From an uncultured virus (IMG/VR IMGVR_UViG_3300006213_000874) (taxonomy: Duplodnaviria; Heunggongvirae; Uroviricota; Caudoviricetes): a stretch of 64,000 nt of DNA. Shown here one piece after another: positions 10,074 through 53,927 of the stretch. The DNA lies in the IMG/VR virus record IMGVR_UViG_3300006213_000874. One strand, written 5' to 3'. Within the stretch, counting starts at the first letter, position 1. Every line of letters begins with the position of its first letter. The notes beneath the pieces are model-generated. The model searched no databases. It saw only the letters and a list, made by a program, of their open reading frames with translations, and had not been told where the DNA came from. The position numbers were made by a program, and so were the translations under genes.

Positions 10074-10116
10074 TTGACTTATGCCTAGATGTATGTTAAA
10101 TTATATCTAGGCATAA
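10074..10116 (+). promoter_or_regulatory. Sigma-A promoter with 12-bp inverted-repeat operator (module A)
   Basis: TTGACT; ttatgcctagat...atctaggcataa. Confidence 0.7.
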
Positions 10117-10132
10117 AAGCGAGGTGGTGAAA

Positions 10133-10318
10133 ATGTCGCCTAGAACTGGCAGACCTATTATCGGGAGCGAGCCGAAAAATCAACAAATTGCATTGAGGGT
10201 AACAGCTACAACAAAGAGGAAATTTCAAGAGTGTTCTGAAATTACCGGAAAAACTCAAACAAATTTGCTTGAAGAAATGGTTGACGACTTGCACGATAGG
10301 TTGACGGAAAAAGAATAG
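10133..10318 (+). CDS. RHH (Arc/CopG-like) repressor, module A
   Basis: MSPRTGRP..IALRV beta strand then two helices. Confidence 0.8.
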   Translation: MSPRTGRPIIGSEPKNQQIALRVTATTKRKFQECSEITGKTQTNLLEEMVDDLHDRLTEKE

Positions 10319-10409
10319 AGCGTTACCGCCCTGAACAAGTGATAAACGCTCTACACCGAGGTTTCCCTCTGATAAATACAATCATATCACAGCGGAGACC
10401 TCTTTTCAA
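10316..10409 (-). ncRNA. Putative antisense sRNA locus with its promoter (module A)
   Basis: Two hairpins; minus-strand TTGAAA-17-TATGAT with extended TG. Confidence 0.55.
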
Positions 10410-10653
10410 GATATTTTTACAAAAGATGAACCCACGCTCATGGGAGAAAGAGGTACATAATAAGAAGAAAAATAATGATAATGCTTTACGCGCTCTCTTC
10501 AATCATTGATGACATTGCATATTTCGTTGTCGGAAATTGCGAGGATTTTCAATGCGAGATTAAAACTCATTGGAGAGAACATTCTATCGGTTAGTATGTT
10601 TTCTGCTGATTTGGGGAGTGGCTACCGCTCCCTTTTGTGATATGGAGGTATTT

Positions 10654-11634
10654 ATGGAAAAGCCAACGCTTAATTGGAGATGTAAAGATATATCTGGGTA
10701 TAGGAAAGGAACGATAACTGTAAAAAATCCAACCGATAGCAGAAGTAAGAACGGATCTATAATATGGGAATGCGAGTGTGAGTGCGGAAACAAGGTTTAT
10801 TTAACAAAACAACAAATAGAGAAAAATCCTTATTGTGGAAAACGCAATAAAACATATAATTTTATAGATTTTAAAGACAAACAAATAGGTGTTCTTCATG
10901 TTATCGAATATACAGGAGATTCAAAATGGTTATGCGAATGTGAGTGTGGAAATCGGAAAATTGTTCATAGGTCTGTTTTGCGAAAAGGAGCAACATATGC
11001 TTGCTCATGCAATCACAAACTTCATAAATCCGATTGCAATACAACGCATGGAAAGAGCAATACAAGGCTTTATCATGTTTGGTGCGGAATGAAAAACAGA
11101 TGTTACAATAAAAATTTAGATGAATATCACAGATATGGCGGCAGAGGAATAACAATCTGCCCTGAATGGCTGGGGAAGAACGGCTTTCAGAATTTTTGTA
11201 AATGGGCATATGCGAATGGGTACGACGAAAATGCAAAGCGTGGAGATTGTACAATAGACAGAATTAACAATGATGGAAATTATGAACCGTCAAATTGCCG
11301 GTGGGCTACATATATTGAACAAGCCAATAATAGGAGTGACAATCATTTAATAGAGATAAGTGGGGTTGTTAAAGGAATTAAGGATTGGTGCGATGAATAC
11401 GGAATAAAAATCGGAACGTATAAAACGAGAGTTCGCAGAGGAACGGACGATGTTTCTGCTATTACTACGCCAATAAGAAAATTCAGCAAAGATTTAACCG
11501 AAAAAGAGAGAAAAGAAAGAAAACAAAAGAGACTTGAAAGAATTAAAAAATGGCAGGAAGAAAACAAAGATAAAGTTAAAGAATATCAAAGAAAAAGCGA
11601 GGAAAAGAAAAAATCAGAAAAGAAAGCCGATTAG
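10654..11634 (+). CDS. HNH-type homing endonuclease-like protein with WxCxCxCG repeats
   Basis: WECECECGN, WLCECECGN, YGGRGITICPEW, TIDRINNDGNYEPSNCRW. Confidence 0.85.
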   Translation: MEKPTLNWRCKDISGYRKGTITVKNPTDSRSKNGSIIWECECECGNKVYLTKQQIEKNPYCGKRNKTYNFIDFKDKQIGVLHVIEYTGDSKWLCECECGNRKIVHRSVLRKGATYACSCNHKLHKSDCNTTHGKSNTRLYHVWCGMKNRCYNKNLDEYHRYGGRGITICPEWLGKNGFQNFCKWAYANGYDENAKRGDCTIDRINNDGNYEPSNCRWATYIEQANNRSDNHLIEISGVVKGIKDWCDEYGIKIGTYKTRVRRGTDDVSAITTPIRKFSKDLTEKERKERKQKRLERIKKWQEENKDKVKEYQRKSEEKKKSEKKAD

Positions 11635-11672
11635 GGGCAGAAATGCCCCTTTTCTTGAAAGAGGGTGTATCT

Positions 11673-11996
11673 ATGAATTTTATTGTGAATAATCATATAT
11701 GGAAGCTGCAATTCGCAAAAGGCGGCAGCGAAAATCTGCGTAGATCGGACGGCAGTTATACTTTTGGTGCGACGGACAATTCTGTCAAAACAGTTTTTCT
11801 CATGCAGAATATGTCGGATTACATGACGGATAAGGTATTAGTTCACGAATTGTCGCACGTCCATGCGCTAGAGTATGACTATTCAATTCCGCTATGGGTA
11901 GAAGAAATCGTTTGTGATTTCCTAAGTCTGTATGGCAGGAGCGTAGTCTATTTGGCGGATAGTATAATGCCAAAGATTTTAAGGAGGATAGCATGA
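11673..11996 (+). CDS. Small HExxH metallopeptidase-like protein
   Basis: VLVHELSH..EE. Confidence 0.7.
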   Translation: MNFIVNNHIWKLQFAKGGSENLRRSDGSYTFGATDNSVKTVFLMQNMSDYMTDKVLVHELSHVHALEYDYSIPLWVEEIVCDFLSLYGRSVVYLADSIMPKILRRIA

Positions 11997-12448
11997 CAAA
12001 TATAGAGTTACTTAAATACATACAACGCACAAATCCCGAAATGACAATAGAGCATATGATTGAAGAATTATCCAAGTGCCGATATTCGTCGGTTGCACTT
12101 TGTATGGTGTGTGAGAATGATAAAAATGTATTGCAAACCAAAGAATCTATGGTATACTAAACTTGTCTAAGGTTTTAGTGAGCGATTTAGATTTCGCTAT
12201 TCAAATTAAAGGCTTGCGATTTTGCAGGCTTTTTATTATGCCCTGCGACAACGATGAATGGCTCAAATTCGCCTTGAAATTGATTTGATGATAATTTATA
12301 GGTCAAGAGGATAAAACGCCTTAAAACGCAAAATACGAGTTCAGAGAGTGTTTCAGCACTCTTTTTTTAATTTTCTTGAAATTTTCTCTTGACTTTTGTT
12401 GTTAGCTACATTATACTAAACGTAGTTAGCTACAAAGGAGGTGATTGT

Positions 12449-12625
12449 TTGGCTAACGCAAGCAGAGCCGAATACTTTAGGGAACGAAGAAAAACCATGA
12501 AACAGTTTAATGTAATGCTCAAGAGAGAAAAAATTGAAGCATTGGAAGAAAAGATTAAGTCTCAAGGGAAAACAAAGGTTGAGTGGTTCGAGGGAATCGT
12601 TGATAAAGAATTGGGCGAAAAATAA
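12449..12625 (+). CDS. RHH-like regulator, module B
   Basis: GGAGG RBS, TTG start; promoter with gttagctaca repeated twice. Confidence 0.72.
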   Translation: MANASRAEYFRERRKTMKQFNVMLKREKIEALEEKIKSQGKTKVEWFEGIVDKELGEK

Positions 12626-12631
12626 TAAGAA

Positions 12632-12724
12632 TGGAGCAATCAGCTTTTGCAAGGGCTATTGATTGCTCCACAACCCCAAACGGAGTACGCAAATATTATA
12701 GCACTGTGTACCTTTGTTTGGCAA
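12632..12724 (-). ncRNA. Putative antisense sRNA locus (module B)
   Basis: Two hairpins; minus-strand TTGCCA-18-TATAAT with TG extension. Confidence 0.55.
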
Positions 12725-12848
12725 CCAATAAATCAAATGGAGGTATATTTTTATGACATTTTTTAGAAATAAAAATTAGGTATTGACTTTTTGACATTCA
12801 TAAAGTATAGTGTACTTAGTGACATTCAAAAAGTGAGGTGAAAAGCGT

Positions 12849-13010
12849 ATGTCACCAATGGGCAGACCAAAGTCTGACAATCCCAAGTCCGAACAAGTCA
12901 CAGTAAGGCTTGATAAAGAACATTCTGAAATTCTCAAAGAGTATTGCGAGAAAGAGAAAGTTGAAAAAGCAGAAGCCATAAGACGAGGGATAAGAAAATT
13001 AAAAGAGTAG
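12849..13010 (+). CDS. RHH (CopG-like) repressor, module C, 53 aa (not in the ORF track)
   Basis: MSPMGRPKSDNPKSEQVTVRLD...AEAIRRGI; promoter with tgacattca repeated twice. Confidence 0.82.
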   Translation: MSPMGRPKSDNPKSEQVTVRLDKEHSEILKEYCEKEKVEKAEAIRRGIRKLKE

Positions 13011-13106
13011 CCGTTTCAAGTTTGGCGACCAGATACGACTACTCAACGCACCAACCCCATGAGAGATTGATAAATCCATTATATCAGCCTCTTATGGGAA
13101 AATCAA
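13005..13106 (-). ncRNA. Putative antisense sRNA locus (module C)
   Basis: Two hairpins; minus-strand TTGATT-17-TATAAT with TG extension. Confidence 0.58.
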
Positions 13107-13133
13107 TCATTTTTTCTTATAGGAGGATTTTTT

Positions 13134-13361
13134 ATGATGTTTTTTAGAAAGAAAAAGGAACTCAAAGAGAAGTTACAGAGGATTGACAAAGAACTTAAAA
13201 ACCGCACAGCCGAGGTGTCGGACGATATTTGGGATTTAGGGGATTTCCTTATGCTGCTTAATATTGCGGAATATTCCAAACCATTAGGAAAGTCAAAAGC
13301 TATTGTTTACGCCCTTAAAATCGGGTATCTGGCAGGAATGGGTGGTACTGAAAATGAGTAA
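13134..13361 (+). CDS. Hypothetical protein
   Basis: GGAGG RBS; coupled to the next ORF. Confidence 0.65.
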   Translation: MMFFRKKKELKEKLQRIDKELKNRTAEVSDDIWDLGDFLMLLNIAEYSKPLGKSKAIVYALKIGYLAGMGGTENE

Positions 13362-13602
13362 GAATGACATTTTAGACCAAGTTTTTACCGCCACTTGCAA
13401 ACTTGAACTTATGAGAACGGTAATTGAAACGCTTATTAACATGGTTGAGGATAATGGAGATATTAAGACACTAGAGCAGGCTATGAATTTTGCATATATC
13501 CAAGGTACTATTGATGATTTTCTCCATATCACACATGATGGCGTACATTTTGCTATTCAGACATTGAATAGCTTGCAGAAAGGTGGTTCTTCTGATGAAT
13601 GA
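13354..13602 (+). CDS. Hypothetical protein
   Basis: Overlapping start/stop arrangement. Confidence 0.6.
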   Translation: MSKNDILDQVFTATCKLELMRTVIETLINMVEDNGDIKTLEQAMNFAYIQGTIDDFLHITHDGVHFAIQTLNSLQKGGSSDE

Positions 13603-14431
13603 CATTCAAACCGCAACCATGCAGACACCTATTGAAATTGCGTTAGGCATTGATGAAAACGGCATGACAACCGCAAGAAAACTGTATGCGTTTTTGGAGT
13701 TAGAGCCGAAAAATTATTCTCGTTGGTGCAAAAGTAATATTGCCGACAATGAATTTGCTACGGAAAACGAGGATTATAAGGTTTTCGTCATTGATGAAGA
13801 AAACCCTTTAGGCGGTAGACCTACACAAGATTTTAAGCTGACCGCCCACTTTGCAAAGAAACTCTCATGCAAAGGTAATGGAGAACGTGCGGAGCAGGCA
13901 AGGGAATATTTTTCCGCGCTTGATGACAAGGTCAAAGAGGTTGCCATAAACCGTAGCCAGTTATCCCAATCCACACAAGCATTGTTCGGTATCATTGAAA
14001 GCATGGCAAAGCAGGAGTTAGAACAGAAACGCCAAGCGGAGCAATTAAACCGTATTGAGCAAAAACAGGAAGTCATATCTGATACCTTTACCCATACTTC
14101 AACCGACGAAGATTTCAAAGCATGGGTAAATCGCTGTATTGCCAAGATTGCCGAAAGTCCGAATTATGCGAATGGTACTGGCAGGTCGGCAAGGTATCAG
14201 AATGTCCGTACCGAGAGTTACGACAGATTAAGGCAGAAATGGAACTGTAACCTTAATGATAGGGTTGCAAGGGCTAAAGGTCGGGCTTTGGAAAACAAGC
14301 CTAACATTACCAAAAAGGAACTTGATTCCATTAACAAGTTATCCGTCATTTCAGAGGATAAGAGCCTAAAACCTGTCTATGAAACGGTCGTTAAGGAAAT
14401 GATGATTTGCTACTGTGTAAACATTTCTTGA
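13595..14431 (+). CDS. Phage antirepressor (AntA/AntB-like N-terminus)
   Basis: TARKLYAFL..GGRPTQDFKLT..AKKL..AREYF. Confidence 0.85.
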   Translation: MNDIQTATMQTPIEIALGIDENGMTTARKLYAFLELEPKNYSRWCKSNIADNEFATENEDYKVFVIDEENPLGGRPTQDFKLTAHFAKKLSCKGNGERAEQAREYFSALDDKVKEVAINRSQLSQSTQALFGIIESMAKQELEQKRQAEQLNRIEQKQEVISDTFTHTSTDEDFKAWVNRCIAKIAESPNYANGTGRSARYQNVRTESYDRLRQKWNCNLNDRVARAKGRALENKPNITKKELDSINKLSVISEDKSLKPVYETVVKEMMICYCVNIS

Positions 14432-14457
14432 CACGTTCCCAACTCTATACATCATTT

Positions 14458-14486
14458 AGGGCGGTAGTGGTCGGCTACTGCCCTTT
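14458..14486. terminator. Bidirectional terminator
   Basis: agggcggtagt...gctactgccctt between convergent genes. Confidence 0.7.
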
Positions 14487-14582
14487 ATTCTGTTTTCAAG
14501 GTACGGAATTGCGTTAGTCGGATTTGCACCAACTACTAGGCGACTAGCACGCAAATTTATTGGATAGACTGCGGTTGCAGGC

Positions 14583-14726
14583 TTAATCTTTTTTATCTTT
14601 GAAGTGTGATGGCTTTCCGTAAATGTCTTTGCTGTCAACGGTACATTTTTTGCAGTATTTCTTTTTGCTTTTATCACGGTCTTTGTTTAGTTGTCCATAT
14701 TCACAATTCTTGCAATCATATTTCAT
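14583..14726 (-). CDS. 47-aa CxxC/CxxC zinc-finger-like protein
   Basis: GGAGG RBS; MKYDCKNC...YCKKC. Confidence 0.55.
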   Translation of the reverse strand: MKYDCKNCEYGQLNKDRDKSKKKYCKKCTVDSKDIYGKPSHFKDKKD

Positions 14727-14801
14727 TCAAAATCCCTCCATTTCAAAAATTATAATTCCGTTGTGGGTGCGTGTCAAGGCGGAAAGGGCGGTTATACCGC
14801 C

Positions 14802-15062
14802 CTATATCGTGTTGACATATTCCATAACGTGCTTTATGGTCTCATCATGCGATTTTCCTGCCATAAGCCGTTTCGATATCGTTGTAAGTTGTCGGCTGTT
14901 TGCGTCAATAATCTTTTTGAGTGCCTCTGTGGGTATCCTTCCAGTCGATACATACCAAGACAGTGGATAGACGGCATTTTCTGCCTCGTTCGCGCTTAGG
15001 CCGCGTTTCCATAGTCTTGTTACAAGGGCAAACTCTATTTCGTTAAAATATTTTTGCGTCAT
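14802..15062 (-). CDS. Hypothetical protein
   Basis: ORF with RBS, followed by a hairpin. Confidence 0.6.
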   Translation of the reverse strand: MTQKYFNEIEFALVTRLWKRGLSANEAENAVYPLSWYVSTGRIPTEALKKIIDANSRQLTTISKRLMAGKSHDETIKHVMEYVNTI

Positions 15063-15155
15063 ATCCTTTTCTTTCTCCCCTATATCCCTGGGGGCTGGGA
15101 ATTTTATTGACAAATGGCAGTCGGGAGGCTTACGCTCCCTGCGCCGCTGGTCTTC

Positions 15156-15413
15156 CTATGATACAAGATTTAAAATCTCGCTTCTTTTCGTCCGTACCAT
15201 TATACGAGCTGTTTTTTCGTCAATTTGACCGTTTGTCATTTTTACAATCAGATTTGTAACCGCTGTAAATGCGTCAAATTCCGCCTTGTACGCCTCGTCA
15301 AAGGTCTTTTCTTTTTCTTCGTTGGTCGGATCGGCCATCATGGCATCGTCTGCCTTGTTTGCGATTTCCTCCAGTCTTGCAAGTTCTTCCAATCTCTTTT
15401 TTAATTCATTCAT
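15156..15413 (-). CDS. Hypothetical helical protein
   Basis: AAGGTGG RBS; 85 aa. Confidence 0.7.
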   Translation of the reverse strand: MNELKKRLEELARLEEIANKADDAMMADPTNEEKEKTFDEAYKAEFDAFTAVTNLIVKMTNGQIDEKTARIMVRTKRSEILNLVS

Positions 15414-15483
15414 AATTTTTCCACCTTTTAACCTTTCTTTTTATTTTGTTCCAACCCCGGCATTTCTGCCGGACGCTTGCGGC

Positions 15484-15897
15484 CTATTTGCTGTATACTC
15501 CCAAAACCTCTGCTCCGCTGATTATCAACTCGCCCATATCGTTTCCACTCTCGGCATAATCTCCGCCCAAAACGTGGACATTGCCGCCAAAATAGATTTT
15601 AACCTGCTCTATGGATTTTGCGATTGATGCATCGTCTTCGGCATCAAATCCGATTACGCAAGTGCCGTCAAGCTCTCCAGCGTCATAAAATCCTGCGTAA
15701 ATACCATCCTCAATATACGGATAAACCAACTCGCCGTCCTCGTCAAAATCCGGATCCTGGAAAAGCTGGTTGGAATTGCTGGCCGTATCGCCGATATTGT
15801 AGCATATTCCGTCGTCAACCCTCAATCCGTAAAACTCAAAATCTGTACCGCTGATTGCTTTCTTAATGTCATCAATCGTTAATTTTGTCATATCCAT
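15484..15897 (-). CDS. Acidic hypothetical protein
   Basis: GGAGG RBS; upstream minus-strand TTGACA/TATAAT promoter. Confidence 0.75.
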   Translation of the reverse strand: MDMTKLTIDDIKKAISGTDFEFYGLRVDDGICYNIGDTASNSNQLFQDPDFDEDGELVYPYIEDGIYAGFYDAGELDGTCVIGFDAEDDASIAKSIEQVKIYFGGNVHVLGGDYAESGNDMGELIISGAEVLGVYSK

Positions 15898-16058
15898 TCC
15901 CTCCTGTCTGGCTTGTTGTTTGCCTGTTTCTTTAACTGTCTTTATTATATCACTTTCAAAAGAAATGTCAAGCCTTTTTATAACTTTTCTAAGAAATATT
16001 TTTTGTTGACTTTTTCGTCGTTATAATATATATTAGGAAATAGAAAGGAGGCTTTAAA

Positions 16059-16295
16059 ATGCTGAAATACAAATTTAATATGGAAGAAGCGCTGGAGCGT
16101 GCGAAATTTAACACGTACAAAGCAAAGACAACTGGACTTTTAAGCCAAGATACGCTAAAAAAAATAAAGGCAGAAAGTACAGATATTAGCCTTAAAGCAT
16201 TAAATAATTTATGCTTAATTTTAGATATGCCGCCAGGGGCGATTCTGGATTTCGAAATCACAGACAAGGAAAAAGAAGATAGAAAAAAACTTTGA
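16059..16295 (+). CDS. Cro/C1-type HTH regulator
   Basis: ISLKALNNLCLILDMPPGAIL; GGAGG RBS. Confidence 0.82.
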   Translation: MLKYKFNMEEALERAKFNTYKAKTTGLLSQDTLKKIKAESTDISLKALNNLCLILDMPPGAILDFEITDKEKEDRKKL

Positions 16296-16576: not shown

Positions 16577-16686
16577 CAGAATAAGGGTTCACAGAAAGGG
16601 CGGTCTTGTCACCGCCCCAACTGCTATTATAGGGTATCATATTTTTCTTGTTTCGGCAACTGTAAATTATTGCATGGTGCATTAAA

Positions 16687-16813
16687 AATTCATTTCATAA
16701 TGAATTAAAAATGAATTGCATAATGAATTTCATAATGCATTAATAATGCATTTAATAATTCATTTATAACTGCATTACATAAATGCATTTTTAATGAAGT
16801 TAGTAAATGCATT
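16687..16813. repeat. Array of about 11 AATKMATT octamers with 11-13 bp period
   Basis: AATGAATT/AATGCATT/AATTCATT units read directly. Confidence 0.8.
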
Positions 16814-16841
16814 ATGAACTTTAAGAACGGAGGTTTTATAA

Positions 16842-17498
16842 ATGAGTGGAACGGAACAAAATAAACTTGATAAGTTGAACGCGCGTTATAAGCGTCAAAA
16901 TGACAAGATACAAAAGAATTATGACAGAGTATCGGCAGTTCTTCCAAAGGGCAGTACAGATCGCATAAAAGCGTTAGGGATAAGCACAAATCAGTTTATA
17001 AACAGTGCGGTATCTTCCGAACTGGACAAGCTGGAAAGCGGTAAAAATCCAAAGAGAAAGCCAAAAGAGCCAACGCCTGACAAGGTAAACGGAAAGCCTG
17101 TTTACAGGTTCTGGAGAGAAGATGAATATATCAAGCGTGGCGGTCAGTGGTGGCATGAGGTTGTATTTTTCCATGATGACATGGAACTAAATGACTTGTT
17201 TATTAAATTTCTTGATATTTCGGCAAAGGAAAATGAAAACTATAAAGACGGATGCCGCCTGTGGTTTGATTTGATAAATCCGCAAAGGGAAGTAGGTAAA
17301 ATAAGTGATTTGGAATTATTAAAAATGACAGATGAAGAAATAGGCAAAATCCCTGATGAACTGCTAGAGGAAACCATAGACCAGAACGAGGAATTAAAGG
17401 CGCTTTTGAAAGATTGTGTGTATAATGGCAATTATAAATCGTTGCTTGAATTTATTGGATTTTACGAACTTGTGGAAACGACAAAAGACAATAAATAA
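16842..17498 (+). CDS. Protein with N-terminal Arc-like RHH domain
   Basis: NYDRVSAVLPKG..STNQFINSAV. Confidence 0.72.
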   Translation: MSGTEQNKLDKLNARYKRQNDKIQKNYDRVSAVLPKGSTDRIKALGISTNQFINSAVSSELDKLESGKNPKRKPKEPTPDKVNGKPVYRFWREDEYIKRGGQWWHEVVFFHDDMELNDLFIKFLDISAKENENYKDGCRLWFDLINPQREVGKISDLELLKMTDEEIGKIPDELLEETIDQNEELKALLKDCVYNGNYKSLLEFIGFYELVETTKDNK

Positions 17499-17653
17499 TT
17501 GCATTTACGAAATGCAGTTAATAAGTGATATTAATAATACAAGCCGTCTATATCGCAAGCATAGTCGGCTTAAATTGATATATGGCATATGTTCTTGAAT
17601 GATTGTATTATATGCCATATATCCGCAATATGTCAAGTAGGAGTGCGGCAGAA

Positions 17654-17977
17654 ATGAAGCATGGAAATAAATATTATTTGCAACTAAGCAGGAAGATTTT
17701 CACAGAGGAATACAGCAATTTGTCAAACAACGCAAAATGGCTTTTCGTGGTTTTGAATGAACTGGAACAGGAATTTTGCGGAGATAAAGCAGAGGACTAT
17801 TTTTATCGTTCCAATGAGGAATTGGCGAAAGACTGCAATTTCGGACTGTCAACGCTCAAGAAAGCCAAATCCGATCTATTAAAGACCGATTTAGTCCAGT
17901 CGCGGCAAGGGCATTTTGTAGACGATTTCGGAAAGAAAAGCGAAAAGCATTTTACATACTACCGAATAAAGTCATAA
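17654..17977 (+). CDS. Winged-HTH protein resembling a replication initiator N-terminus (short)
   Basis: LSNNAKWLFVVL..FYRSNEELAKDCNFGLSTLKKAKSDL. Confidence 0.7.
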   Translation: MKHGNKYYLQLSRKIFTEEYSNLSNNAKWLFVVLNELEQEFCGDKAEDYFYRSNEELAKDCNFGLSTLKKAKSDLLKTDLVQSRQGHFVDDFGKKSEKHFTYYRIKS

Positions 17978-17980
17978 TTA

Positions 17981-18054
17981 GCAAAGGCCAATATTTATAC
18001 CATTGCCCAAAGGCCAAAATATAACCCACGGCAAAGGTCAGATTTTAACCCACG
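17981..18054 (+). repeat. Three iteron-like repeats followed by an AT-rich tract
   Basis: CAAAGGYCA-N-ACC at 17982, 18008, 18032. Confidence 0.7.
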
Positions 18055-18580
18055 TATATAAGAACTGTATTTTATATTAAGAATTGGATTATAATTATCT
18101 AAGATTTAGTAAATAACATAGTATTGCTAAAGCAATACGTTGTATATTTATAATATATACAATAAAACATAGCACAGTATATATTATTATCCACAGAGTA
18201 TATTATACCAGTAGTCTATAGCGTACATATAGCCATAGTGTGCAGTGTTAGCCAATACAGTATATATATTCATATATCACAGAATATTAATCCAATACAG
18301 TAAATCTTTGGTCAATAAAGTATAACATACACACATTACCGGTATGTATTAAATTATTATAATACGCGCGCGGATATATATTATATACAGCTTGCAGAAT
18401 ATATGTTCTGTAAATCCACAGTTGACAGATAAATAAATCTATGATATGGTTTTAATAATTTAACAGATTTACTTAACTTTTTTGGATGGAATTGTAGAGG
18501 GAAACTAAAACCCGGAGGTCATGACGCTATCATGGCTTTCTGGGTTATTTTTATTTTTAGGCAGAATGGAGGTGTGGAAA

Positions 18581-21655: not shown

Positions 21656-21727
21656 AGGGCTATCGCCAAACGGTAAGGCACAGCGCTTTGACTGCTGTAT
21701 TTCCGGGTTCGAGTCCTGGTAGCCCTG
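21656..21727 (+). tRNA. tRNA-Gln(TTG)
   Basis: Cloverleaf; AGGGCTA/TAGCCCT acceptor, CTTTGAC loop, GTTCGAG. Confidence 0.9.
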
Positions 21728-22132
21728 TTGCCGCGACTTGCGCCGGAGTTGCGCGGGAATAAAGTTAATGGGTCGCGGTATTAAATCTGAAAGCGAGGGA
21801 GTTTTGATGATTATTGCCATCTTTGGGATAATTGTTTTTCAACTCGTGGAACGGATTGCCATAGTCGAGAAATCCTCAACAGAGGTTTTGAGGAAATGCA
21901 TCTGTATGTTAGGGTTTTCATACAATGCAATTCCGGCAAGGCATGAAGTCCCGTGAAAGCCATATCTGCAAGAAGATAATCCGCAAAATGCTGAAAAGCC
22001 AGTATTGATTATTAAAAATTATAATTGAGATAATGAACCAACAAAACTATCAAACATTGCGGATATGGCGGATTTAAGAAAATATATAAACTTATCGGCG
22101 GCGGCTTGTTGGTCTCGTTGCCGCCGGTTTAT

Positions 22133-22205
22133 GCGGGCATAGCTCAATCGGAAGAGCACTGGACTCCAAAACCAGAAGTCGTAGGTTCGACCCCCTCTGC
22201 CCGTG
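22133..22205 (+). tRNA. tRNA-Trp(CCA), T-stem with two mismatches
   Basis: GCGGGCA/TGCCCGT acceptor, CTCCAAA loop; T-stem GTAGG/CCCTC. Confidence 0.78.
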
Positions 22206-22329
22206 CTTAGTATCAAATATTTGTATTATTCGATATCTCCTTTTAACCCCGTAGTGGAATGCTGTTAAGAGCCATCGCACGGCTTGCGGGGATTCGGTGG
22301 AGCGACCACCATTATAAAAACAATCCGTG

Positions 22330-22615
22330 TAAAAATGTCACAAGTCTTGCAGGCAGGATGTCTAATGCCGAGGGGAAACTTGGAAAGATAATTTTCGGTT
22401 CATTTGTTGGAGATCCAGGAGGGAAAAACTATATTGAACTGCCAATAAAGAGTGCGGACGTTTTTAGCAACAATATACTAGCGATCAATGGTGATTTTGT
22501 TGTGTATGGCGGCTTCGTTATTGGTTTCAACTTCTACAAAGAAAATGTCGTGTGTATATTATCTGCTGCGAGAAGCGGGGCCATAAGGATCAATTATATA
22601 TATTTCCATGTTTAG
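22330..22615 (+). pseudogene. Orphan fragment resembling a tail-fibre tip domain
   Basis: Short coiled segment then beta-rich INGD..IRINY end; no strong RBS. Confidence 0.35.
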
Positions 22616-22680
22616 GCGCGTCAGTTGAAAGATAAGTGAAATGGTTTGTGTGGCGGGGAGGAACCCGCAAAAGGGAGGAT

Positions 22681-22869
22681 ATGGGAATGGCGAGCACGAC
22701 AAGAAAACCAATTCCAAGGAAGTATGAAGAGTGCCTAAATTGCCCGAACGATATTCCTGGTTATGGAAAGTGTAAGATAAAGTTTGACAATTTTTATTAT
22801 CGGAGAGGGAAAAATAATCGTTGTTTCCATTGTCAAGAGGAAATCAGAAAATTGAAATTAGGATTCTAA
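22681..22869 (+). CDS. Cys-rich small protein
   Basis: GGAGG RBS; CLNC, CFHC. Confidence 0.55.
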   Translation: MGMASTTRKPIPRKYEECLNCPNDIPGYGKCKIKFDNFYYRRGKNNRCFHCQEEIRKLKLGF

Positions 22870-22977
22870 AATCCATTTTAAGCCATTTTAACCCCACGCC
22901 CTATAATTTCATCACCGAAACACAAAAGAGGGCGTTTTGGGGCAAATAGGAGCGTTAGAGAGGTATCAAAACAATAA

Positions 22978-23060
22978 GGGAAGTTATACAGTAGGGGCAG
23001 CGGGGCAGTCTGTAAAACTGTTATCTTTGGATTCGGGCGGTTCGACTCCGCCACTTCCCA
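22978..23060 (+). tRNA. tRNA-Tyr(GTA), atypical D-arm
   Basis: GGGAAGT/ACTTCCC acceptor, CTGTAAA loop, long variable arm, GGCGG-TTCGACT-CCGCC. Confidence 0.82.
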
Positions 23061-23178
23061 TTTTGATAATACTTGCCATTATCAAATCAAGCACAGCATG
23101 AGCCTTTAGGGTATAGTGCGGTAGTCTGATAAACTATGTGGGGAATGGGAGGCAAGTTTCCAAACCCCATGCTTGTAT

Positions 23179-23250
23179 GGTGTCATAGCCAAGTGGATAA
23201 GGCAACAGACTGCAACTCTGTTATCGAGGGTTCAAATCCCTCTGACATCT
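23179..23250 (+). tRNA. tRNA-Cys(GCA)
   Basis: GGTGTCA/TGACATC acceptor, CTGCAAC loop, U73 discriminator. Confidence 0.9.
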
Positions 23251-23423
23251 CTTTTTATAAAAACCTGTCGGTCAAGCCTATATGGTGAGCAAAAATAGAG
23301 AATCAGTAAAGCCTTAAATGACCGTAAAACCCGTGATAGCCCCGGACACGCAAGGGATTAGTTTCCCGGATACGGAAATCGTCACGAATTGCCGCATAGT
23401 TGTGAAAGGTCTATGCGGAATAT

Positions 23424-23497
23424 GCGGGAGTACCCAAGTGGTGATTGGATGCGTCTTATACACGTCAACGCCGCAGGTTCGATTCCTGCTTCCCGTA
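23424..23497 (+). tRNA. tRNA-Ile(TAT)
   Basis: GCGGGAG/TTCCCGT acceptor, GCGT-CTTATAC-ACGT, GCAGG-TTCGATT-CCTGC. Confidence 0.8.
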
Positions 23498-23602
23498 CTT
23501 AACAGCGGAATAGCCCGACGGGGCAAAAAGTGGCAAACTCCACAAGCCGCCTGTCCGTTGTTTAACAAAATTGTGGAGAGAAAAGCATAGTGGAGGTGCG
23601 AT

Positions 23603-44840: not shown

Positions 44841-44843
44841 CAA

Positions 44844-47464: not shown

Positions 47465-47486
47465 CAACAGAAAGGACTCACATATT

Positions 47487-47972: not shown

Positions 47973-48382
47973 CGTGGGAACTTTACTGTGAGGAAATACG
48001 CCCATACTGGCTCATGGTCACAAAAGGGTACGGATTTACAGTTGACGACATAGACTGGTCATGCCCGACAGACCTTGAGCCGTATGCAAAGGCGCATAAT
48101 CTTGAGCTGATGGAACGCGACGCGCAGATGCACAGCATGGGGAAATACACAGAAATAGCATTCAGCGTAGTCATGGCGCATTTTGGCGCAGGTCTTGCCG
48201 GAAAAGATTCTCACGCGGAATATATCGAAAAGCCGTTCATGCAGATGGATGACCCGAACAGGGAACTTACAGAAGAAGAAATTCAGATTGAAGTCGACCG
48301 GTTCTTTGAGGATGAGCGAAGACGGCGCGAAGAATGGAAAAGAAAGAAAAGACGCGCAGAAATGCGGAATGCGGAACGGTAG
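47885..48382 (+). CDS. -1 frameshift extension of the chaperone (gpGT)
   Basis: T TTT TTA at 47885-47891; the -1 frame is open through ELTWELYCEEIRPYW to 48382. Confidence 0.82.
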   Translation, partial: FFTEERGEPGGERDERTRCCDGDGENRELTWELYCEEIRPYWLMVTKGYGFTVDDIDWSCPTDLEPYAKAHNLELMERDAQMHSMGKYTEIAFSVVMAHFGAGLAGKDSHAEYIEKPFMQMDDPNRELTEEEIQIEVDRFFEDERRRREEWKRKKRRAEMRNAER

Positions 48383-48541
48383 TGCGTCAAGATCTATTGT
48401 TCTTTCAAAATACAGAATCGACGATGTGTCTTTAATAGACGACACTCAATTTATAATAGAAAAAGCAAACTTTATGCATTCTATAAAATTTATTGTAAAT
48501 AAATTTTGCGAAAAAGCAAATCATCATGGAGGAATGATTTT

Positions 48542-49235
48542 ATGAATGAAATGATTGAGGAAGCAAAAAAGACACCGATTGAGATTGCATTACAGATTGA
48601 TGACGAGGGATATACCACATCAAGAAAACTTTATTTCTGGCTATATGAAAACGGCAGCCACTATGCAAAATGGCTTAAAGAAAATGTAACAGAAAATCCG
48701 TTTGCAGAGGAAAATGAGGTTTTCGCCAATCTTGCGAAAACCTCAAAAACAGGGAGGCAGACCGACAGAGGACTACAAAATAACTGATTCACTTGCCAAA
48801 AGAATTTCTATGGCTACCAAGTCAGGACGCGGAGAAGAAGCAAGGAACTATTTCATAGGTTGCGAACAGGCACTTGCCAAAGTTTCAGAACAAATTCATA
48901 AAACAGAGATAGAAAGAGCAAAGGGAATAGCGGTGCGCCAGGCGCTAACAAAAGCAATTCAGCAATCGGGAGAAAATGAACGTATGCACGGACGTGCCTA
49001 TTCCAATTACACAGACCACATCGTATACAAACAGGTTTTCGGGATGAAAGCAAAGGAACTGCGGGAGAAATACGGGATAGGAAATAAAGATAATTTGAGA
49101 GACTGCTTTACAGACGAGGAATTAAAGAGTGTTCAAAACGCAGAAATGCTCATTTCAAGCCTCATGGAATACGGATGGGGATTTAACGAAATAAAAGATT
49201 TTGTGCTGAACAAGGTAAACAGAATGATTGAATAG
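48542..49235 (+). pseudogene. AntA-like antirepressor split by a +1 frameshift
   Basis: TPIEIAL..RKLY in one frame, GGRPTEDY onward in the next; A5 run at ~48745. Confidence 0.8.
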
Positions 49236-49838
49236 CGCCGGAATCAGGCGTTATTTTTATGCCCGTTTTTAAATTTAAAATCAGGAGGGGAAACAATGCA
49301 AGAAGCTGAAAAGATGCTCAAAACGTTAAAAAGCATTGATTGTACTTTAAAACGAATTGAGCAGTTGATTAAAACGGGAAATAAATACGAAGACATAAAC
49401 AGCGTAATTCCCGGTGCTCCGTACAATAAAAAATACAAGGTTGATTGTGGGAAGTATCCTCTATCAGGAACTTAACCAGTTATGGTAATGTTCTGGCATT
49501 TCCATAATTCCAATTTCAACCCATGCGCGACGATAAAACTCATGCTCTTCTCCTGCTTCGCAAAAAGTTTTTCGTTAACGGCATTTAGCACTTTTTGGTG
49601 AATAGAGTGGTGGATTTCGTCGCTGTGATTACTTACATAGGATTTGAAATCTTTAAAATCTTTCATGAAAAACACCTCCTTTCCGAGGAGATTATAACAC
49701 AAATTTACAAAATATGCGCTTGACAAGGCAGTGATTGGTTGGCAGAGATAGACTACCGCGCGACATGGGTTCCGGTTTTTCTTGATTTACCAATCTGTTG
49801 TGGTACAATATAAAAAAACTACAAGGGAGGATAAACCG

Positions 49839-50244
49839 ATGAAGAAAAAACTTATAACACTGATACTGGCAGCGTGTGTTCTGTAGAGCGGGTGCGGAGA
49901 AGAATCGAGCAACAGTCGGGAATCGGAAACCGTTGCGGAATCAGAAAAAGACGAAAAGACAGATTCAAAAGAACCCGAAGAAGAATCTAACCAGGATAAA
50001 AGCGGGCAAGAATCCGAAAACAAAGAAAGCAAAAAGAACAAAAAGAAGTCCAAAAAGAAAAGCAAACCAAAGAAAAAGTCAAATGATGAACCCGAAGAAA
50101 AGTCCGACGCACAAAAGAAAGGGGGAGGAATTAGGAGAAAAGTTAAACGAAAAATTGGAATCCATTGATTGGGACGAAAATTACGAAAAGGCAGAAGAAG
50201 CCGGAAAGAAAGCGGCGGAATGGCTAAACAAATTATTTGAGTAA
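49839..50244 (+). pseudogene. Lipoprotein with premature TAG and frameshift
   Basis: MKKKLITLILAACVL*SGC (TAG 49884); G5 run at ~50121 shifts frame. Confidence 0.75.
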
Positions 50245-50269
50245 AAATATACATAGGAGGATAAAGCAT

Positions 50270-50883
50270 ATGATGATACAGTGTCCAGAGTGCGGAAAGG
50301 AAATAAGCGATAGAGCAGAGTTTTGTCCTAATTGCGGGTTCCCAATGAGAGAATGCACAACCGCAAGCCATGTAACTGTTAGAAGCATTTTTGAAATAAA
50401 TGGTGTTGCGTTTGATGTTTTGAGAGTGAAAAACAAGGCTTTTATTAAAACGGTAGCAAATGTATCAAAAAAGGTTGCGAAACTTTGTAAGTGTGAGAAA
50501 GAGAAAGCGGAAGAGGTTGTATATGGGTACTTTTTAGCCACACACGGAGATTGCATTTACGATATTGCAGAATTAAGAAACAAAATAAATCATATAAAAT
50601 CTGCGAACGGGAAAAAATTATATTGTCCATATTGCCTTAGCAGAAATATTGATTCAATGGAGACGGTTCATGAATCAGTATCAATAGGAAAGTCGGAGAT
50701 CAGAAAAAGAGCGCTGTCACGAGAGCCGGAAACAAAGCTGGTAGAGCCGGAATGATTATGGCAACAGGCGGATTATGGGCGTTAACACCAAAAAAATCAG
50801 ATTACAAGGAAGTGAGTAAAGGGGAAACTTCATATTATACAACTGTTACAAGGACTTGCGCGGATTGCGGTTCTGCATTTTGA
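50270..50883 (+). pseudogene. Zinc-ribbon protein with frameshift
   Basis: CPEC/CPNC, CPYC; partner CADC lies in another frame after the A5 run at ~50704. Confidence 0.72.
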
Positions 50884-51008
50884 TCATATTCTCATGTTGA
50901 CAGGAGTTTATCTTGGATGTTTGTTGTGAGGTTTTTAACATCAATATTGAATGACAAATAAAATATGCTGTGATATAATGAATGAAAATGCAAAGGAGGA
51001 TTTTATCA

Positions 51009-51587
51009 ATGAAATCAAAAACAAAGAAATTTCTTTCCGCAATTTTAACCCTGGCCGTTTTGTTTTCCGCGCTTATTCCGATTCATGCACGGGCGGCGAA
51101 AGAAGATGGAAGCAAAAAGAATCCGTATTCTGCATACAAGTCATGCAAAACGGAAGTGTATGGCGCTTCGTATGCGGGAAAGTTTAAGATCAGGCTTGTT
51201 GATTATAAAGACGGAAAAGAAGCGCTGAAATTTCTAAAAGAAAACGGGGTCAAAAAGAACCCGGGGAAGTCAAAGGAATATGTATACCTGAAATTCAAAA
51301 TCAAATGCATATCAGCCGATGAAGAAGTTCCGGCAGACTTGATTTTGAATGAATATTCGAGTTTCTTTGACTCAAAATGCAAGAAACAGTTAAAAGCAGA
51401 ATTGATTCCGGTTGGCGATGGGAACAAAGAACTTTCATATAATACGATGATTTCGCCCGGCGAAACTGTTATTTGCTCAATTGCACTTTCGGTTAAATCT
51501 GGAAGCACGCCGATTACATACAGAATTTCAGCCGGATATGATGAAGATTATAATGAAATAGAGAAATGGTTTACAACAAAGAAGTAA
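51009..51587 (+). CDS. Secreted Ig-like (DUF4352-like) protein
   Basis: Signal peptide; GSKKNP; EYVYLKFKIK; own promoter and terminator. Confidence 0.75.
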   Translation: MKSKTKKFLSAILTLAVLFSALIPIHARAAKEDGSKKNPYSAYKSCKTEVYGASYAGKFKIRLVDYKDGKEALKFLKENGVKKNPGKSKEYVYLKFKIKCISADEEVPADLILNEYSSFFDSKCKKQLKAELIPVGDGNKELSYNTMISPGETVICSIALSVKSGSTPITYRISAGYDEDYNEIEKWFTTKK

Positions 51588-51725
51588 TAAGCGATTGGAT
51601 TCTTTGTAAATTAATTTGGCGGGGAGAAAACCCCGCCGTCTTTATAAATTTTATTTTGCAACATTAAATGAATATCTTTTTCTTTGTTGTACAACAGAAA
51701 CAAACTATAAAGGAGAAGCTCTAAA

Positions 51726-52904
51726 ATGAACAAAAAATTTTACGAAAGAACATGGTTTGTCGTGATGTGCTGCATAATCTTTCCGCCTGCCGGAATATTT
51801 CTGATATGGAAAAACAAAAAGCCAGACAGGAAAAACTCCAGAATCTTTATCAGCGCGATTCTTTGCTTGTGGACGTTGGCTATTGTTATGGGCGGTTCGG
51901 ATGGAGAAAATTTGTCTAACGAAAGCAGAGAACAGCAAGAAGAAACCACAAAGACCGAAGCAGAAAACGAGAAAAGCGACAGACAGGAAGTAAAAGAAAA
52001 AGGCAAAAAGGCAAGGGAAAACAGGGGCAGAAAGGCAAAAAAAGAAAAGCCGAACAAAAAATTAAAGCGCGCAATAGAATCTATCGGAATGGACTATTCG
52101 CGTGTAAAGAATATAAAGAATCTAAGCGACTGGTCGTCTGGCAAACGATATAGTTTCGTATATGACGGATTCAGATACATAGTATATGAACTTGGGAACG
52201 GCGAGATAGAATCCGTAAATACAGACGTTAAAAGGGCAAAAATTTACGAGAGAGGATATAAGTCGCTAAACTATAAAGATTTTGAGCCAGATGCAAACGT
52301 TGTAGAACCCTTGCAGACAGATGCTATTGAAAGGCTTTCTAAATACATCAAGGGAGAAACTTCCATAAAAAGCAAAATAGGCTCAATGATGTATTCCAGA
52401 ATATATGATTACTATTCGATTTCTGGGGAAGTTAAGGCGAAAAATGCTGTCAGTAAAAAGGATTTTACTTTTACGGTTGACTATATCGTAAAAAACGGAA
52501 GTTATGAGTGCGTGTATTTGGCGATTGACGGAGAGGTTGCTTTTGGTTCAGACCAGACACCAGAACTTCCTAAAGAGGAATTGGAGCAGGAGGACAGTTC
52601 GAAAAACGCAGAATCAATCATACTATCCGATGGGAAAGAGGGGAAATACGGTCAATACGATTCGTTTGACGGAGAACCATATTTGAGGTATCATGTTCCG
52701 GTTGGAAATTATAAGGTCAAGTGCAATATTCGAGGCGGATTTTACATTGAAACCATTGAACTTCACAAAGAAGATGGATGGGACACAGCAACCACTATAC
52801 AGCAGATAAATATGTCAGAGGGAGAAGTAACGGAGATTGTAATAGAGGACGGTCAGTGCATTAGCCTTATTATAAACACAGAGATAGAACTGATTAAACA
52901 ATAA
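51726..52904 (+). CDS. Membrane-anchored extracytoplasmic protein
   Basis: KKFYERTWF..FPPAGIFLIW two-TM N-terminus; terminator after. Confidence 0.82.
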   Translation: MNKKFYERTWFVVMCCIIFPPAGIFLIWKNKKPDRKNSRIFISAILCLWTLAIVMGGSDGENLSNESREQQEETTKTEAENEKSDRQEVKEKGKKARENRGRKAKKEKPNKKLKRAIESIGMDYSRVKNIKNLSDWSSGKRYSFVYDGFRYIVYELGNGEIESVNTDVKRAKIYERGYKSLNYKDFEPDANVVEPLQTDAIERLSKYIKGETSIKSKIGSMMYSRIYDYYSISGEVKAKNAVSKKDFTFTVDYIVKNGSYECVYLAIDGEVAFGSDQTPELPKEELEQEDSSKNAESIILSDGKEGKYGQYDSFDGEPYLRYHVPVGNYKVKCNIRGGFYIETIELHKEDGWDTATTIQQINMSEGEVTEIVIEDGQCISLIINTEIELIKQ

Positions 52905-53018
52905 GATGCATTAAGGGATAGCGATTTTGCTGTCCCTTTTAAAATTTTTAATTTTCCTCTTGACTTTTGTTTAAACAGATGTTATATTTTGTTTATACAA
53001 AAGAAAGGAGATGATAAG

Positions 53019-53195
53019 TTGTCGCCTAGAACTGGCAGACCAACAAACAATCCCAAAGAAAATTATACAGGGATTAGGTTATCTGACGATGAACTTAAAA
53101 AGTTGAAGTTTTGCATGGAAAAAACTGGAATGACAAAAACAGGCGTGATACGTGCGGGGATTGAACTTGTTTATGAACAGATAACAAAGAAATAA
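53019..53195 (+). CDS. RHH repressor, module D
   Basis: (M)SPRTGRPTNNPK..GIRL..TKTGVIRAGI; promoter TTGACT with ttttgtttaWaca repeated twice. Confidence 0.82.
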   Translation: MSPRTGRPTNNPKENYTGIRLSDDELKKLKFCMEKTGMTKTGVIRAGIELVYEQITKK

Positions 53196-53292
53196 AGCGG
53201 TAACGCTCCGACCAAAGAACATACCGCTTTAAACCAAAACTCCCATAAGAAGCTGACGCATACAGTATAACAGCCTCTTGTGGGAATGTCAA
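53193..53292 (-). ncRNA. Putative antisense sRNA locus (module D)
   Basis: Two hairpins; minus-strand TTGACA-17-TATACT with TG extension. Confidence 0.6.
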
Positions 53293-53315
53293 ACATTTTC
53301 ATAGGAGGTTTTTAT

Positions 53316-53927
53316 ATGGATGATTTAATGATTAAAAATGTGGATGTATTTGGCGATAGCATAATGGCTGTAAAAGACAAAGACGGGAACATATGGGCCG
53401 GTGTTAGCTACTTTTGTCGTGCGCTTGGAATGGATAAAAAGCAGAAAGACAATCAGGTAGAGAGAGTGCAGCAAGACGACGTATTAAAGAGGGGTGCCGG
53501 TAAATTTCCGGCAGGGGTATTCGACCCAGCAAATGAAGCAGTTGCGCTTCGCATTGACTTCGTTCCAATATGGCTTACAAAAATTAGAATAACTCCAAAA
53601 ATGAAAAATGAACGCCCGGAACTTGCGGAGAAACTACTGAATTACCAATTGAAAGCCAAAGACATCCTTGCCGACGCTTTCCTCCCAAACAGGGAGCCGG
53701 AACAAACCCAGGTATGCAATCCATCCGAAATCCAGTTAGGAGAACTTGCAAGCTATCTTAAAATCATGGACAAGGTAGCGAACCGCCAGAATCTCGCATC
53801 TTATAAGATTGCAGAGAACTTCAAGAGAGTGTCGGAGCAGTTCGGCGTACAGCTTTCAGATGATTTTGTGAACGTGCCGGAATATGTGCAGCAGACCCTT
53901 AAACTTGAGGGAGGTGCGGCAAAATGA
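53316..53927 (+). CDS. Antirepressor with P22 Ant-like N-terminal domain
   Basis: CRALGM..Q..D.VL..PIWL.KI..KL..YQ..L..AF. Confidence 0.82.
   Translation: MDDLMIKNVDVFGDSIMAVKDKDGNIWAGVSYFCRALGMDKKQKDNQVERVQQDDVLKRGAGKFPAGVFDPANEAVALRIDFVPIWLTKIRITPKMKNERPELAEKLLNYQLKAKDILADAFLPNREPEQTQVCNPSEIQLGELASYLKIMDKVANRQNLASYKIAENFKRVSEQFGVQLSDDFVNVPEYVQQTLKLEGGAAK

Follow-up and report, generated by a model that had tools for sequence, protein, structure and literature searches.

The 64,000-nucleotide (nt) stretch of DNA analysed here (the window) is the left 64 kb of the 70.8-kb virus record IMGVR_UViG_3300006213_000874 (IMG/VR) and carries four modules (A, B, C and D) which, as the initial annotation had claimed, share one architecture: a forward promoter, a small gene for a ribbon-helix-helix (RHH) protein, a leader made of hairpins with an embedded antisense promoter and, in some modules, a downstream gene (the cargo). 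Judged by sequence statistics and by predicted folds, this cassette is probably a two-layer off-switch for an antirepressor-type gene, in which autorepression by the RHH protein would be combined with an antisense RNA that drives the leader from one hairpin (hairpin 2, H2) into another (hairpin 3, H3), the latter burying the Shine-Dalgarno sequence (SD) of the cargo. The cassette is widespread in Firmicutes phages.

The antisense RNA and the proposed refolding of the leader

Scans of viral contigs gave at least 235 loci (306 RHH matches, 179 distinct downstream regions), and about 1000 matching stretches are estimated to exist. After removal of one long fusion, 138 downstream regions below 75% identity were left as the non-redundant viral set. 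An antisense promoter scoring at least 13.5 lies behind the RHH gene in 108 of these 138 loci. The controls gave 0.8% (shuffled sequences), 5/138 (sense strand) and 1% (298 other gene ends). When the threshold was lowered and the position restricted to 60-100 nt from the RHH stop codon, the antisense promoter was found in 126/138 loci and in 25/298 control gene ends. Its spacer measures 17 nt in 114 of 130 cases. In the held-out bacterial genomes, whose records are mostly from Lachnospiraceae, Oscillospiraceae and other Clostridia, 72 of the 83 new non-redundant loci passed with the lower threshold and the position window, and 62 of the 83 at 13.5 or above. Among nine of the 73 further matches that were examined, the antisense promoter and the hairpins were also present in phiCD211, CDKM15, Javan489, Javan570, MismyG, Javan727 and a C. 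perfringens plasmid; this leader (antisense promoter, hairpins) was absent from a Geobacillus plasmid CopG homolog. The CDKM15 cassette (locus L239, 891-1780) is located directly downstream of the clustered regularly interspaced short palindromic repeat (CRISPR) array of the phage.

The strand on which each hairpin works was assessed by aligning the inverted repeats with Watson-Crick pairs alone scored, which is blind to strand, and counting the A·C and G·T mismatches afterwards. Counts out of 118 refer to the loci with SD and start codon (126 had the promoter, and eight were removed for lack of an SD), and counts out of 57 to held-out loci. On the plus strand, composition predicts 29 A·C and 22 G·T mismatches for hairpin 1 (H1), but 92 and 1 were counted, which places its G·U wobble pairs on the antisense strand; its fold is more stable on that strand in 113/118 loci, and a U-rich tail (at least 8 U in 11 nt) follows it there in 62/118. 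The opposite bias was found in H2 (105 G·T, 47 A·C) and H3 (119 G·T, 14 A·C), compared with 100:102 in control regions; the held-out counts were 40:2 for H1, 54:34 for H2 and 50:6 for H3. The strand-specific wobble bias and the U-rich tail therefore indicate that H1 terminates a real antisense RNA and that H2 and H3 are structures of the mRNA. The predicted antisense RNA has a median length of about 73 nt, and in the 118 loci its 5' end never reaches the SD, from which it is separated by 34-57 nt (5th-95th percentile) on the upstream side.

An RNA of this kind has already been detected in Streptococcus pyogenes SF370, whose prophage record Javan489 contains the same arrangement: RHH gene (SPy_0978), leader, small open reading frame (ORF), antirepressor. 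Le Rhun et al. (PMC4829319) reported Spy_sRNA800369 (minus strand, 800301-800369, 69 nt, coverage 878, Northern-validated), classed there only as antisense to the 3' untranslated region (UTR) of hypothetical SPy_0978. With a coordinate offset taken from a second small RNA (sRNA) of the same prophage (778640-778642), this RNA runs from about 7 nt after the predicted TATAAT through the U-tract at the RHH stop codon, within about 1-2 nt of our prediction. The claim of the initial annotation that a cis antisense RNA is terminated at hairpin 1 is thus supported both by the antisense-strand G·U bias and by a homologous S. pyogenes RNA. A search by name or locus tag found no follow-up paper on Spy_sRNA800369. 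Another candidate for an expressed example, SP119_SR103, was rejected, as it sits after a head-morphogenesis gene and not after an RHH gene. For the phage of the window, a search for reads gave 21 runs, every one of them made up of contigs.

In H3 the cargo SD is paired with the 3' arm of H2, a segment that serves as the spacer of the antisense promoter as well. Because both hairpins use this arm, they are mutually exclusive. The two arms of H2 pair with -18.5 kcal/mol when cognate and -8.7 kcal/mol when swapped between loci, the cognate pairing being in the top 5% for 98/118 loci (41/57 in the held-out set); for H3 the values are -12.6 and -8.5 kcal/mol, with 39/118 in the top 5% (about 6 expected). 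Shuffling of the spacer weakens H3 in 115/118 loci, and an anti-SD motif is found inside the spacer in 89/118, compared with 21% of the shuffled spacers. When the part covered by the antisense RNA was blocked in constrained folding, the SD paired with the spacer arm in 109/118 loci, up from 38/118. A run of at least 5 U in 8 nt follows H3 in 49/118 loci (14/57 in the held-out set) and H2 in 3/118. Since the antisense RNA stops 34-57 nt short of the SD, it could act on translation only indirectly, through the change from H2 to the SD-sequestering H3.

The proposed course of events is as follows. On entry into a naive cell the RHH promoter would fire, H2 would fold first during transcription and leave the SD free, and a short pulse of cargo would be made. 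The RHH protein would then accumulate and close its own promoter, and the antisense RNA would accumulate too, its promoter having a 17-bp spacer that is at the same time the anti-SD arm. This RNA, which likely nucleates at the H1 loop and at its own 5' tail, would occupy the 5' arm of H2, and the 3' arm thus freed would pair with the SD as H3. H3 is predicted to stop translation in nearly all copies and, where a U-tract follows (about 25-40% of copies), it likely also terminates transcription. In a lysogen both layers would keep the cargo off, including that of an incoming phage with the same head, and modules A and B are heads that lost their cargo and retain the repressor and antisense parts.

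Several results weigh against this switch. In the held-out set the wobble bias of H2 is modest (54:34), and the placement of the SF370 RNA depends on the offset inferred from the second sRNA. The SD already pairs with the spacer arm in 38/118 loci when nothing is blocked, and a clean predicted change from ON to OFF (from below 0.3 to above 0.5) occurs in only 57/118. The U-tracts after H3 are limited to the 49/118 and 14/57 loci given above, and the terminator scan flagged neither the H3 of B nor that of C. At equilibrium, module D favours the OFF fold over the ON fold by 2 kcal/mol, so that its ON state needs a co-transcriptional trap in which H2 forms first. The YUNR loop motif is weakly enriched (97/115, compared with 70% of shuffled loops and 195/332 control hairpins). 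Covariation across the leaders, which the initial annotation had proposed to look for, was not seen: RNAalifold, run on 60 leaders aligned with MAFFT, gave no consensus pair and there was no column-wise covariation, in place of which the cognate versus swapped pairing and the wobble-strand tests were used.

Some of these points could also be read in another way, with the antisense promoter acting mainly in cis, by convergent-transcription interference or by RNase III cleavage of the duplex, and H2 and H3 tuning translation without being switched by the RNA. The antisense promoter is indeed near-consensus and faces the RHH promoter, convergent transcription affects antisense RNA levels in pIP501 (PMC5703833), and the clean switch is predicted in the 57/118 loci only. 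However, H1 has been selected as an antisense-strand RNA hairpin with a U-tract, a discrete 69-nt RNA is present in SF370, and H2 and H3 share one arm and both show the mRNA-strand G·U bias, which interference alone would not need; we consider this reading unlikely. H2 and H3 might otherwise be inverted repeats of the DNA bound by a protein (e.g. the cargo), the antisense RNA only trimming or destabilising the 3' end of the RHH mRNA. The antisense RNA does overlap the region of the RHH stop codon, in agreement with the 3' UTR class of Le Rhun et al., but the G·U bias of H3 (119:14) and the anti-SD motifs in 89/118 spacers point to an mRNA structure at the cargo SD, and the arms of H2, unlike the operators, have no common sequence across loci, making a DNA-level role quite improbable. 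The least credible account is a switch of the opposite sign, with H2 as a default terminator and the antisense RNA activating the cargo like a small transcription activating RNA (STAR): a short T run does follow H2 in module A, but at least 5 U follow the stem in only 3/118 H2s compared with 49/118 H3s, and once H2 is opened, the anti-SD arm becomes available and pairs with the SD in 109/118 loci.

The four modules of the window and their putative repressors

The gene content of the window is prophage-like (host-type recQ, transfer RNA (tRNA) and metA at the left end, then portal, capsid and tape-measure genes), and the window reads as a prophage whose relatives point to a host among the Clostridia. 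Modules A, B and C are located in the early or accessory region and D in an accessory block ahead of the tape-measure gene. Their features are:

10074..10102, plus strand: module A promoter, TTGACT-17-TAAATT
10079..10116: module A putative operator, inverted repeat with 12-bp arms (10079-10090 and 10105-10116)
10133..10318, plus strand: putative RHH repressor A, 61 amino acids (aa), strand triplet Q-A-R
10316..10353, minus strand: A H1, predicted antisense RNA terminator, U-tract next on the minus strand
10309..10373, minus strand: predicted antisense RNA A, about 65 nt, start set by analogy with SF370
10358..10402, plus strand: A H2, followed by neither H3 nor SD (cargo lost)
10381..10409, minus strand: antisense promoter A, TTGAAA-17-TGA TATGAT
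12389..12417, plus strand: module B promoter, TTGACT-17-TATACT
12401..12434: module B putative operator, 10-bp direct repeat at 12401 and 12425
12449..12625, plus strand: putative RHH-like repressor B, 58 aa, PHROG 3896
12632..12671, minus strand: B H1, predicted antisense terminator
12621..12688, minus strand: predicted antisense RNA B, about 68 nt
12677..12721, plus strand: B H2, predicted ON fold
12695..12724, minus strand: antisense promoter B, TTGCCA-18-TGC TATAAT
12706..12748, plus strand: B H3, predicted OFF fold, buries SD 12739-12743, U-tract next
12754..12780, plus strand: 8-codon cargo stub after B, near copy of the C cargo start
12783..12811, plus strand: module C promoter, TTGACT-17-TATAGT
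12792..12828: module C putative operator, 9-bp direct repeat at 12792 and 12820
12849..13010, plus strand: putative RHH repressor C, 53 aa, Pfam RHH_1 above cut-off, triplet Q-T-R
13005..13044, minus strand: C H1, predicted antisense terminator, UUGGCG in the sense-strand loop
13000..13071, minus strand: predicted antisense RNA C, about 70 nt
13056..13098, plus strand: C H2, predicted ON fold
13078..13106, minus strand: antisense promoter C, TTGATT-17-TGA TATAAT
13088..13133, plus strand: C H3 (13088-13126) burying SD 13122-13126, plus U-tract
13134..13361, plus strand: C cargo 1, 75 aa, without family match
13345..13602, plus strand: C cargo 2, about 85 aa, without family match
13595..14431, plus strand: C cargo 3, AntA/AntB-domain protein, 278 aa
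52960..52988, plus strand: module D promoter, TTGACT-17-TATATT
52965..52995: module D putative operator, 9-bp direct repeat at 52965 and 52987, AT-rich, weakest of the four
53019..53195, plus strand: putative RHH repressor D, 58 aa, PHROG 876
53193..53229, minus strand: D H1, predicted antisense terminator
53186..53257, minus strand: predicted antisense RNA D, about 71 nt
53241..53285, plus strand: D H2, predicted ON fold
53264..53292, minus strand: antisense promoter D, TTGACA-17-TGT TATACT
53272..53315, plus strand: D H3 (53272-53310, 18 bp) burying SD 53304-53308, plus U-tract
53316..53927, plus strand: D cargo, P22_AR_N-domain antirepressor-like protein, 203 aa

Much of the initial annotation holds at this level. 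The forward TTGACT promoters begin at 10074, 12389, 12783 (not 12784, as had been given for C) and 52960; all four have a 17-nt spacer, and a separate operator pair overlaps each of them; H1 is at the RHH stop codon; and the minus-strand TGn-TATRMT boxes have their -35 hexamers 17, 18, 17 and 17 nt away. Four other statements needed correction. The RHH genes do encode 61, 58, 53 and 58 aa (A to D), within the 53-61 aa range described, but the Pfam RHH_1 cut-off was passed by C alone (PHROG 876 was matched by A, C and D, and PHROG 3896 by B). A ribosome-binding site (RBS) follows the leader in B, C and D, but not in A. The antirepressor described after D follows directly, but in C the AntA gene comes only after an unknown 75-aa ORF and an ORF of about 85 aa. 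The antisense starts placed at 10375, 12689, 13072 and 53258 are likely 1-2 nt further downstream (about 10373, 12688, 13071 and 53257). The alternative hairpin H3 over the RBS, present in B, C and D and absent from A, had been overlooked.

A sequence profile built from the MAFFT alignment of the 60 leaders (59 loci plus module A, out of 92 eligible) matched exactly the four modules in the window (E-values 2e-13, 9e-12 and 1e-11, and 2e-6 for B, which was outside the training alignment); the next-best match was a partial promoter (E 0.0025), and no fifth copy was found in the window by this profile. The four copies had been taken for a cassette multiplied within one prophage. They do not look like it: the other RHH proteins are 20-40% identical to that of C, no two antisense targets have more than 8 contiguous nt in common, and heads have been reshuffled between phages. 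In loci L003 and L004, RHH proteins 94-96% identical to C are combined with other leaders and other cargo, which shows that the three parts (head, leader, cargo) recombine independently of one another.

The RHH protein likely represses its own promoter. Of 124 loci, 120 have a forward promoter, with TTGACT in 105; this promoter is overlapped by repeats of 8 nt or more in 80/124 loci, compared with 2.6% of the shuffled sequences. In RHH proteins three residues of the strand read the DNA, and here the operator sequence varies with the residues at positions -2 and -4 relative to the conserved strand arginine: R-T-R is found with GGCAGACA, Q-K-R with GTGTACAC, D-K-R with GGAACTC, S-R-R with GTATCCAC, Q-A-R with GCCTAG (module A) and Q-T-R with GACATTCA (module C). 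The mean operator similarity among 111 loci was 7.0 for pairs with the same triplet and 3.9 for the others, a difference to which kinship contributes; because of this, the tracking is consistent with autoregulation and falls short of proof. The RHH protein of C was predicted to form a homodimer through residues 16-21 (score 0.58, best control 0.00; predicted local distance difference test (pLDDT) about 76), the runs agreeing in at least 94% of contacts. The mark used was reached by 20 of 30 solved dimers and by 1 of 23 monomers, and the pass of C likely reflects its likeness to solved RHH dimers. Weak RHH matches were obtained in a search of solved structures (ParG, E 0.019; CopG, E 0.23).

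The claim that the cassettes are portable, orthogonal RHH and antisense units is supported by their conservation in more than 200 loci and by the operator code. In the window the operators of the four heads are all different and, with antisense targets as dissimilar as noted above, the predicted antisense duplexes range from -127 to -139 kcal/mol for cognate pairs and from -21 to -46 kcal/mol for cross pairs.

Comparison with known systems

The initial annotation had likened the cassette to P22 immI and to pMV158 copG-rnaII-repB. The gene order (RHH, antisense RNA, target) bears this out; the mechanism of Sar and RNAII does not, the RNA ending here 34-57 nt short of the SD. P22 immI also has a small autoregulated RHH gene, a cis antisense RNA of about 70 nt, an antirepressor-type gene and a moron-like block (PMC2629481, PMC7968456), and the cargo of D has a P22_AR_N domain. 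Unlike the cassette RNA, P22 Sar directly blocks the ant RBS, and P22 has Mnt (PMC2629481, PMC7968456); in the gene map of the window, none of the four modules has a divergent, Mnt-like ORF with an RBS immediately ahead of it. Other differences are that P22 Arc is absent from the solved-structure matches of the cassette RHH, that the cassette hosts are mainly Firmicutes, that many specificities coexist and that heads stack. In pMV158 there is likewise an RHH autorepressor, a countertranscript with a 5' tail and a terminator hairpin, and a target (PMC4485353), and CopG is the weak profile match (E 0.23) mentioned above. However, its 48-nt RNAII pairs immediately upstream of the repB initiation signals, the target is Rep, and an H2/H3 switch is not described for it in the accessible text (PMC4485353).

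The switch likely works like the attenuator of pT181 and pSK41 and not like P22 Sar. With pT181 RNAI, pIP501 RNAIII and pSK41 RNAI, the antisense RNA binds the pre-emptor (the equivalent of the 5' arm of H2) and the freed arm forms an RBS stem-loop, which terminates transcription in pT181 and only sequesters the RBS in pSK41 (PMC5703833). Both features are predicted in the cassette: the pre-emptor pairing in 98/118 and 41/57 loci, and the RBS stem-loop in 109/118 (in B, C and D, and not in A). Unlike in the plasmids, where the target is Rep, the targets here are phage Ant-type genes or small unknown ORFs, an autoregulated RHH gene precedes the leader, the antisense RNA is one terminal hairpin with a tail, and the spacer of the antisense promoter itself is the anti-SD arm. 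By analogy, the cassette combines the logic of P22 immI with refolding of the pT181/pSK41 type and likely works like both; it belongs to neither family, because defining features of each are lacking.

The Rfam search suggested by the initial annotation gave no match to an existing family: at the gathering score there was none on any leader in the window or in 16 related loci, including to the plasmid antisense families, and the P1/P4 C4-type models gave none at the gathering threshold or at E<=10. The P1/P4 C4/CI-type RNAs also differ in strand, the cassette RNA being made from the opposite one. The match of CopA (Rfam) to the antisense strand of C (19.6 bits, cut-off 60, E 3.9) was rejected as chance-level, like other matches at E<=10. 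Our literature search, which left most subscription journals outside, found no earlier description of the cassette or of the switch. Pieces have been published. Spy_sRNA800369 is the antisense RNA of a homologous cassette, presented in the accessible text of PMC4829319 without repressor, switch, cargo link or family. The candidates DNAVirus_3515/3517, 2809 and 1135 of Fremin et al. (PMC10690425) are 78-80 nt long and situated at most 25 bp upstream of Bro-N/AntA/ORF6N/Rha genes in Clostridia gut phages; DNAVirus_3515 carries a terminator flag and overlaps with a candidate on the opposite strand. Compared by description only, they are probably pieces of this leader, unlike which they appear as table entries without mechanism, the words 'Bro-N' and 'repressor' being absent from the accessible main text (PMC10690425). 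The streptococcal prophage antisense sRNAs upstream of integrases described by Rosinski-Chupin et al. (PMC6431027) are also short prophage RNAs facing a leader, but they target the integrase and lack an RHH head. In SF370, the antisense RNA of the integrase leader (locus L247, 1175-1266) has a hairpin-loop motif like that of H1 in module C.

If the switch operates as proposed, it would provide a testable control circuit for the AntA/Bro-N/Rha/ORF6N genes, which Firmicutes phages often carry and about whose regulation little is known; an orphan S. pyogenes prophage RNA would gain a predicted target and mechanism, and attenuation by antisense RNA, familiar from plasmid copy control, would extend to regulatory genes of phages. 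The cassettes, which come from gut Clostridia, would also offer synthetic biology, where orthogonal attenuators are a stated bottleneck (PMC3753616), a natural collection of numerous repressor-operator pairs that follow a three-residue code, together with antisense switches for which no cross-reaction is predicted.

Cargo, stacked heads and other window elements

By domain content the cargo appears to be of the antirepressor type. Among 107 first ORFs, 41 have an AntA, ORF6N, Rha, Bro-N or P22_AR_N domain, one encodes an IrrE/ImmA-type peptidase and 65 are without Pfam match, mostly 60-100 aa long. When modules with a small first ORF were followed downstream, 30 of 46 had an Ant-type gene as the second or third gene (55 of 74 candidate downstream ORFs scanned), and Ant-type genes are found in at least 71/107 operons. 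The small first ORFs are not one family (mean column identity 11%); they gave no Pfam match, and among the 21 scanned against PHROG no match except two HNH nucleases. In Listeria, the AntA-KilAC protein AriS acts on SOS and phage gene timing and is not a classical antirepressor (PMC9043618). An HNH endonuclease gene of PHROG 374 (10654-11634) begins 240 nt after the cargo-less module A and is direct cargo in the relatives L028 and L037; this endonuclease is a possible driver of cassette movement. Three more Ant-type genes of the window (two Rha, one AntA split over two frames; 45405, 48542-49235 and 54617) are without this leader.

Of 251 distinct modules, 45 have no cargo. Of the cargo-less modules, 27/45 stand in front of another RHH head at a distance of at most 500 nt, compared with 2/206 cargo-bearing ones. 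The antisense promoter scores are 14.55 (cargo-less) and 14.57 (cargo-bearing) and the hairpins are about equally intact, a comparison biased by the definition of modules through the presence of the antisense promoter, as RHH-only heads also occur. None of the 27 adjacent head pairs has a common operator, which argues against simple duplication and, because operator classes are many, does not show selection. In some cargo-less heads the antisense region is 87-100% identical to that of a cargo-bearing cassette on another contig. In the window, B ahead of C is such a stacked cargo-less head. Tandem arrays of RHH heads with different operators occur in L253 (785-2019), L278, L173 and L105-L109, with up to five heads at one locus, and the otherwise similar phages L105-L109 differ in the heads stacked.

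A tentative reading is that the cargo-less heads form a modular immunity library, silencing in trans the matching cassettes of incoming or co-resident phages, with escape by head swap; if stacked heads do confer immunity, this would be a new layer of gut phage-phage conflict. Either this is so or the stacks are neutral relics, remaining from the insertion of new heads at the start of a cargo gene. The 8-codon stub of B (12738-12785) is a near copy of the cargo start of C (13118-13165), as if head C had inserted at the 5' end of a cargo gene.

Some other elements of the window are related to the cassette in logic or domain. The region 17535-18060 contains a leader of similar logic and unrelated sequence (minus-strand TTGACA-18-TATAAT at 17636-17607, two hairpins, weak H3), preceding a gene for a 107-aa replication-initiator/DnaD-like protein (17654-17977; PHROG E 2e-6 to 5e-4), after which come three repeats 24-26 nt apart; the unit resembles a plasmid cop-antisense-rep-iteron arrangement. 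Upstream, an AT-rich array of short, partly palindromic repeats (16680-16830) precedes the gene of a 218-aa protein at 16842, whose N-terminus matches PHROGs 31631 and 13890 (unknown function). At 8134-8703 an RHH domain (PHROG 876) is fused to a YopX domain, with its own promoter and no antisense leader. Finally, five Rfam tRNA matches are clustered at 21656-23576, together with an int-alpA match just above the cut-off.

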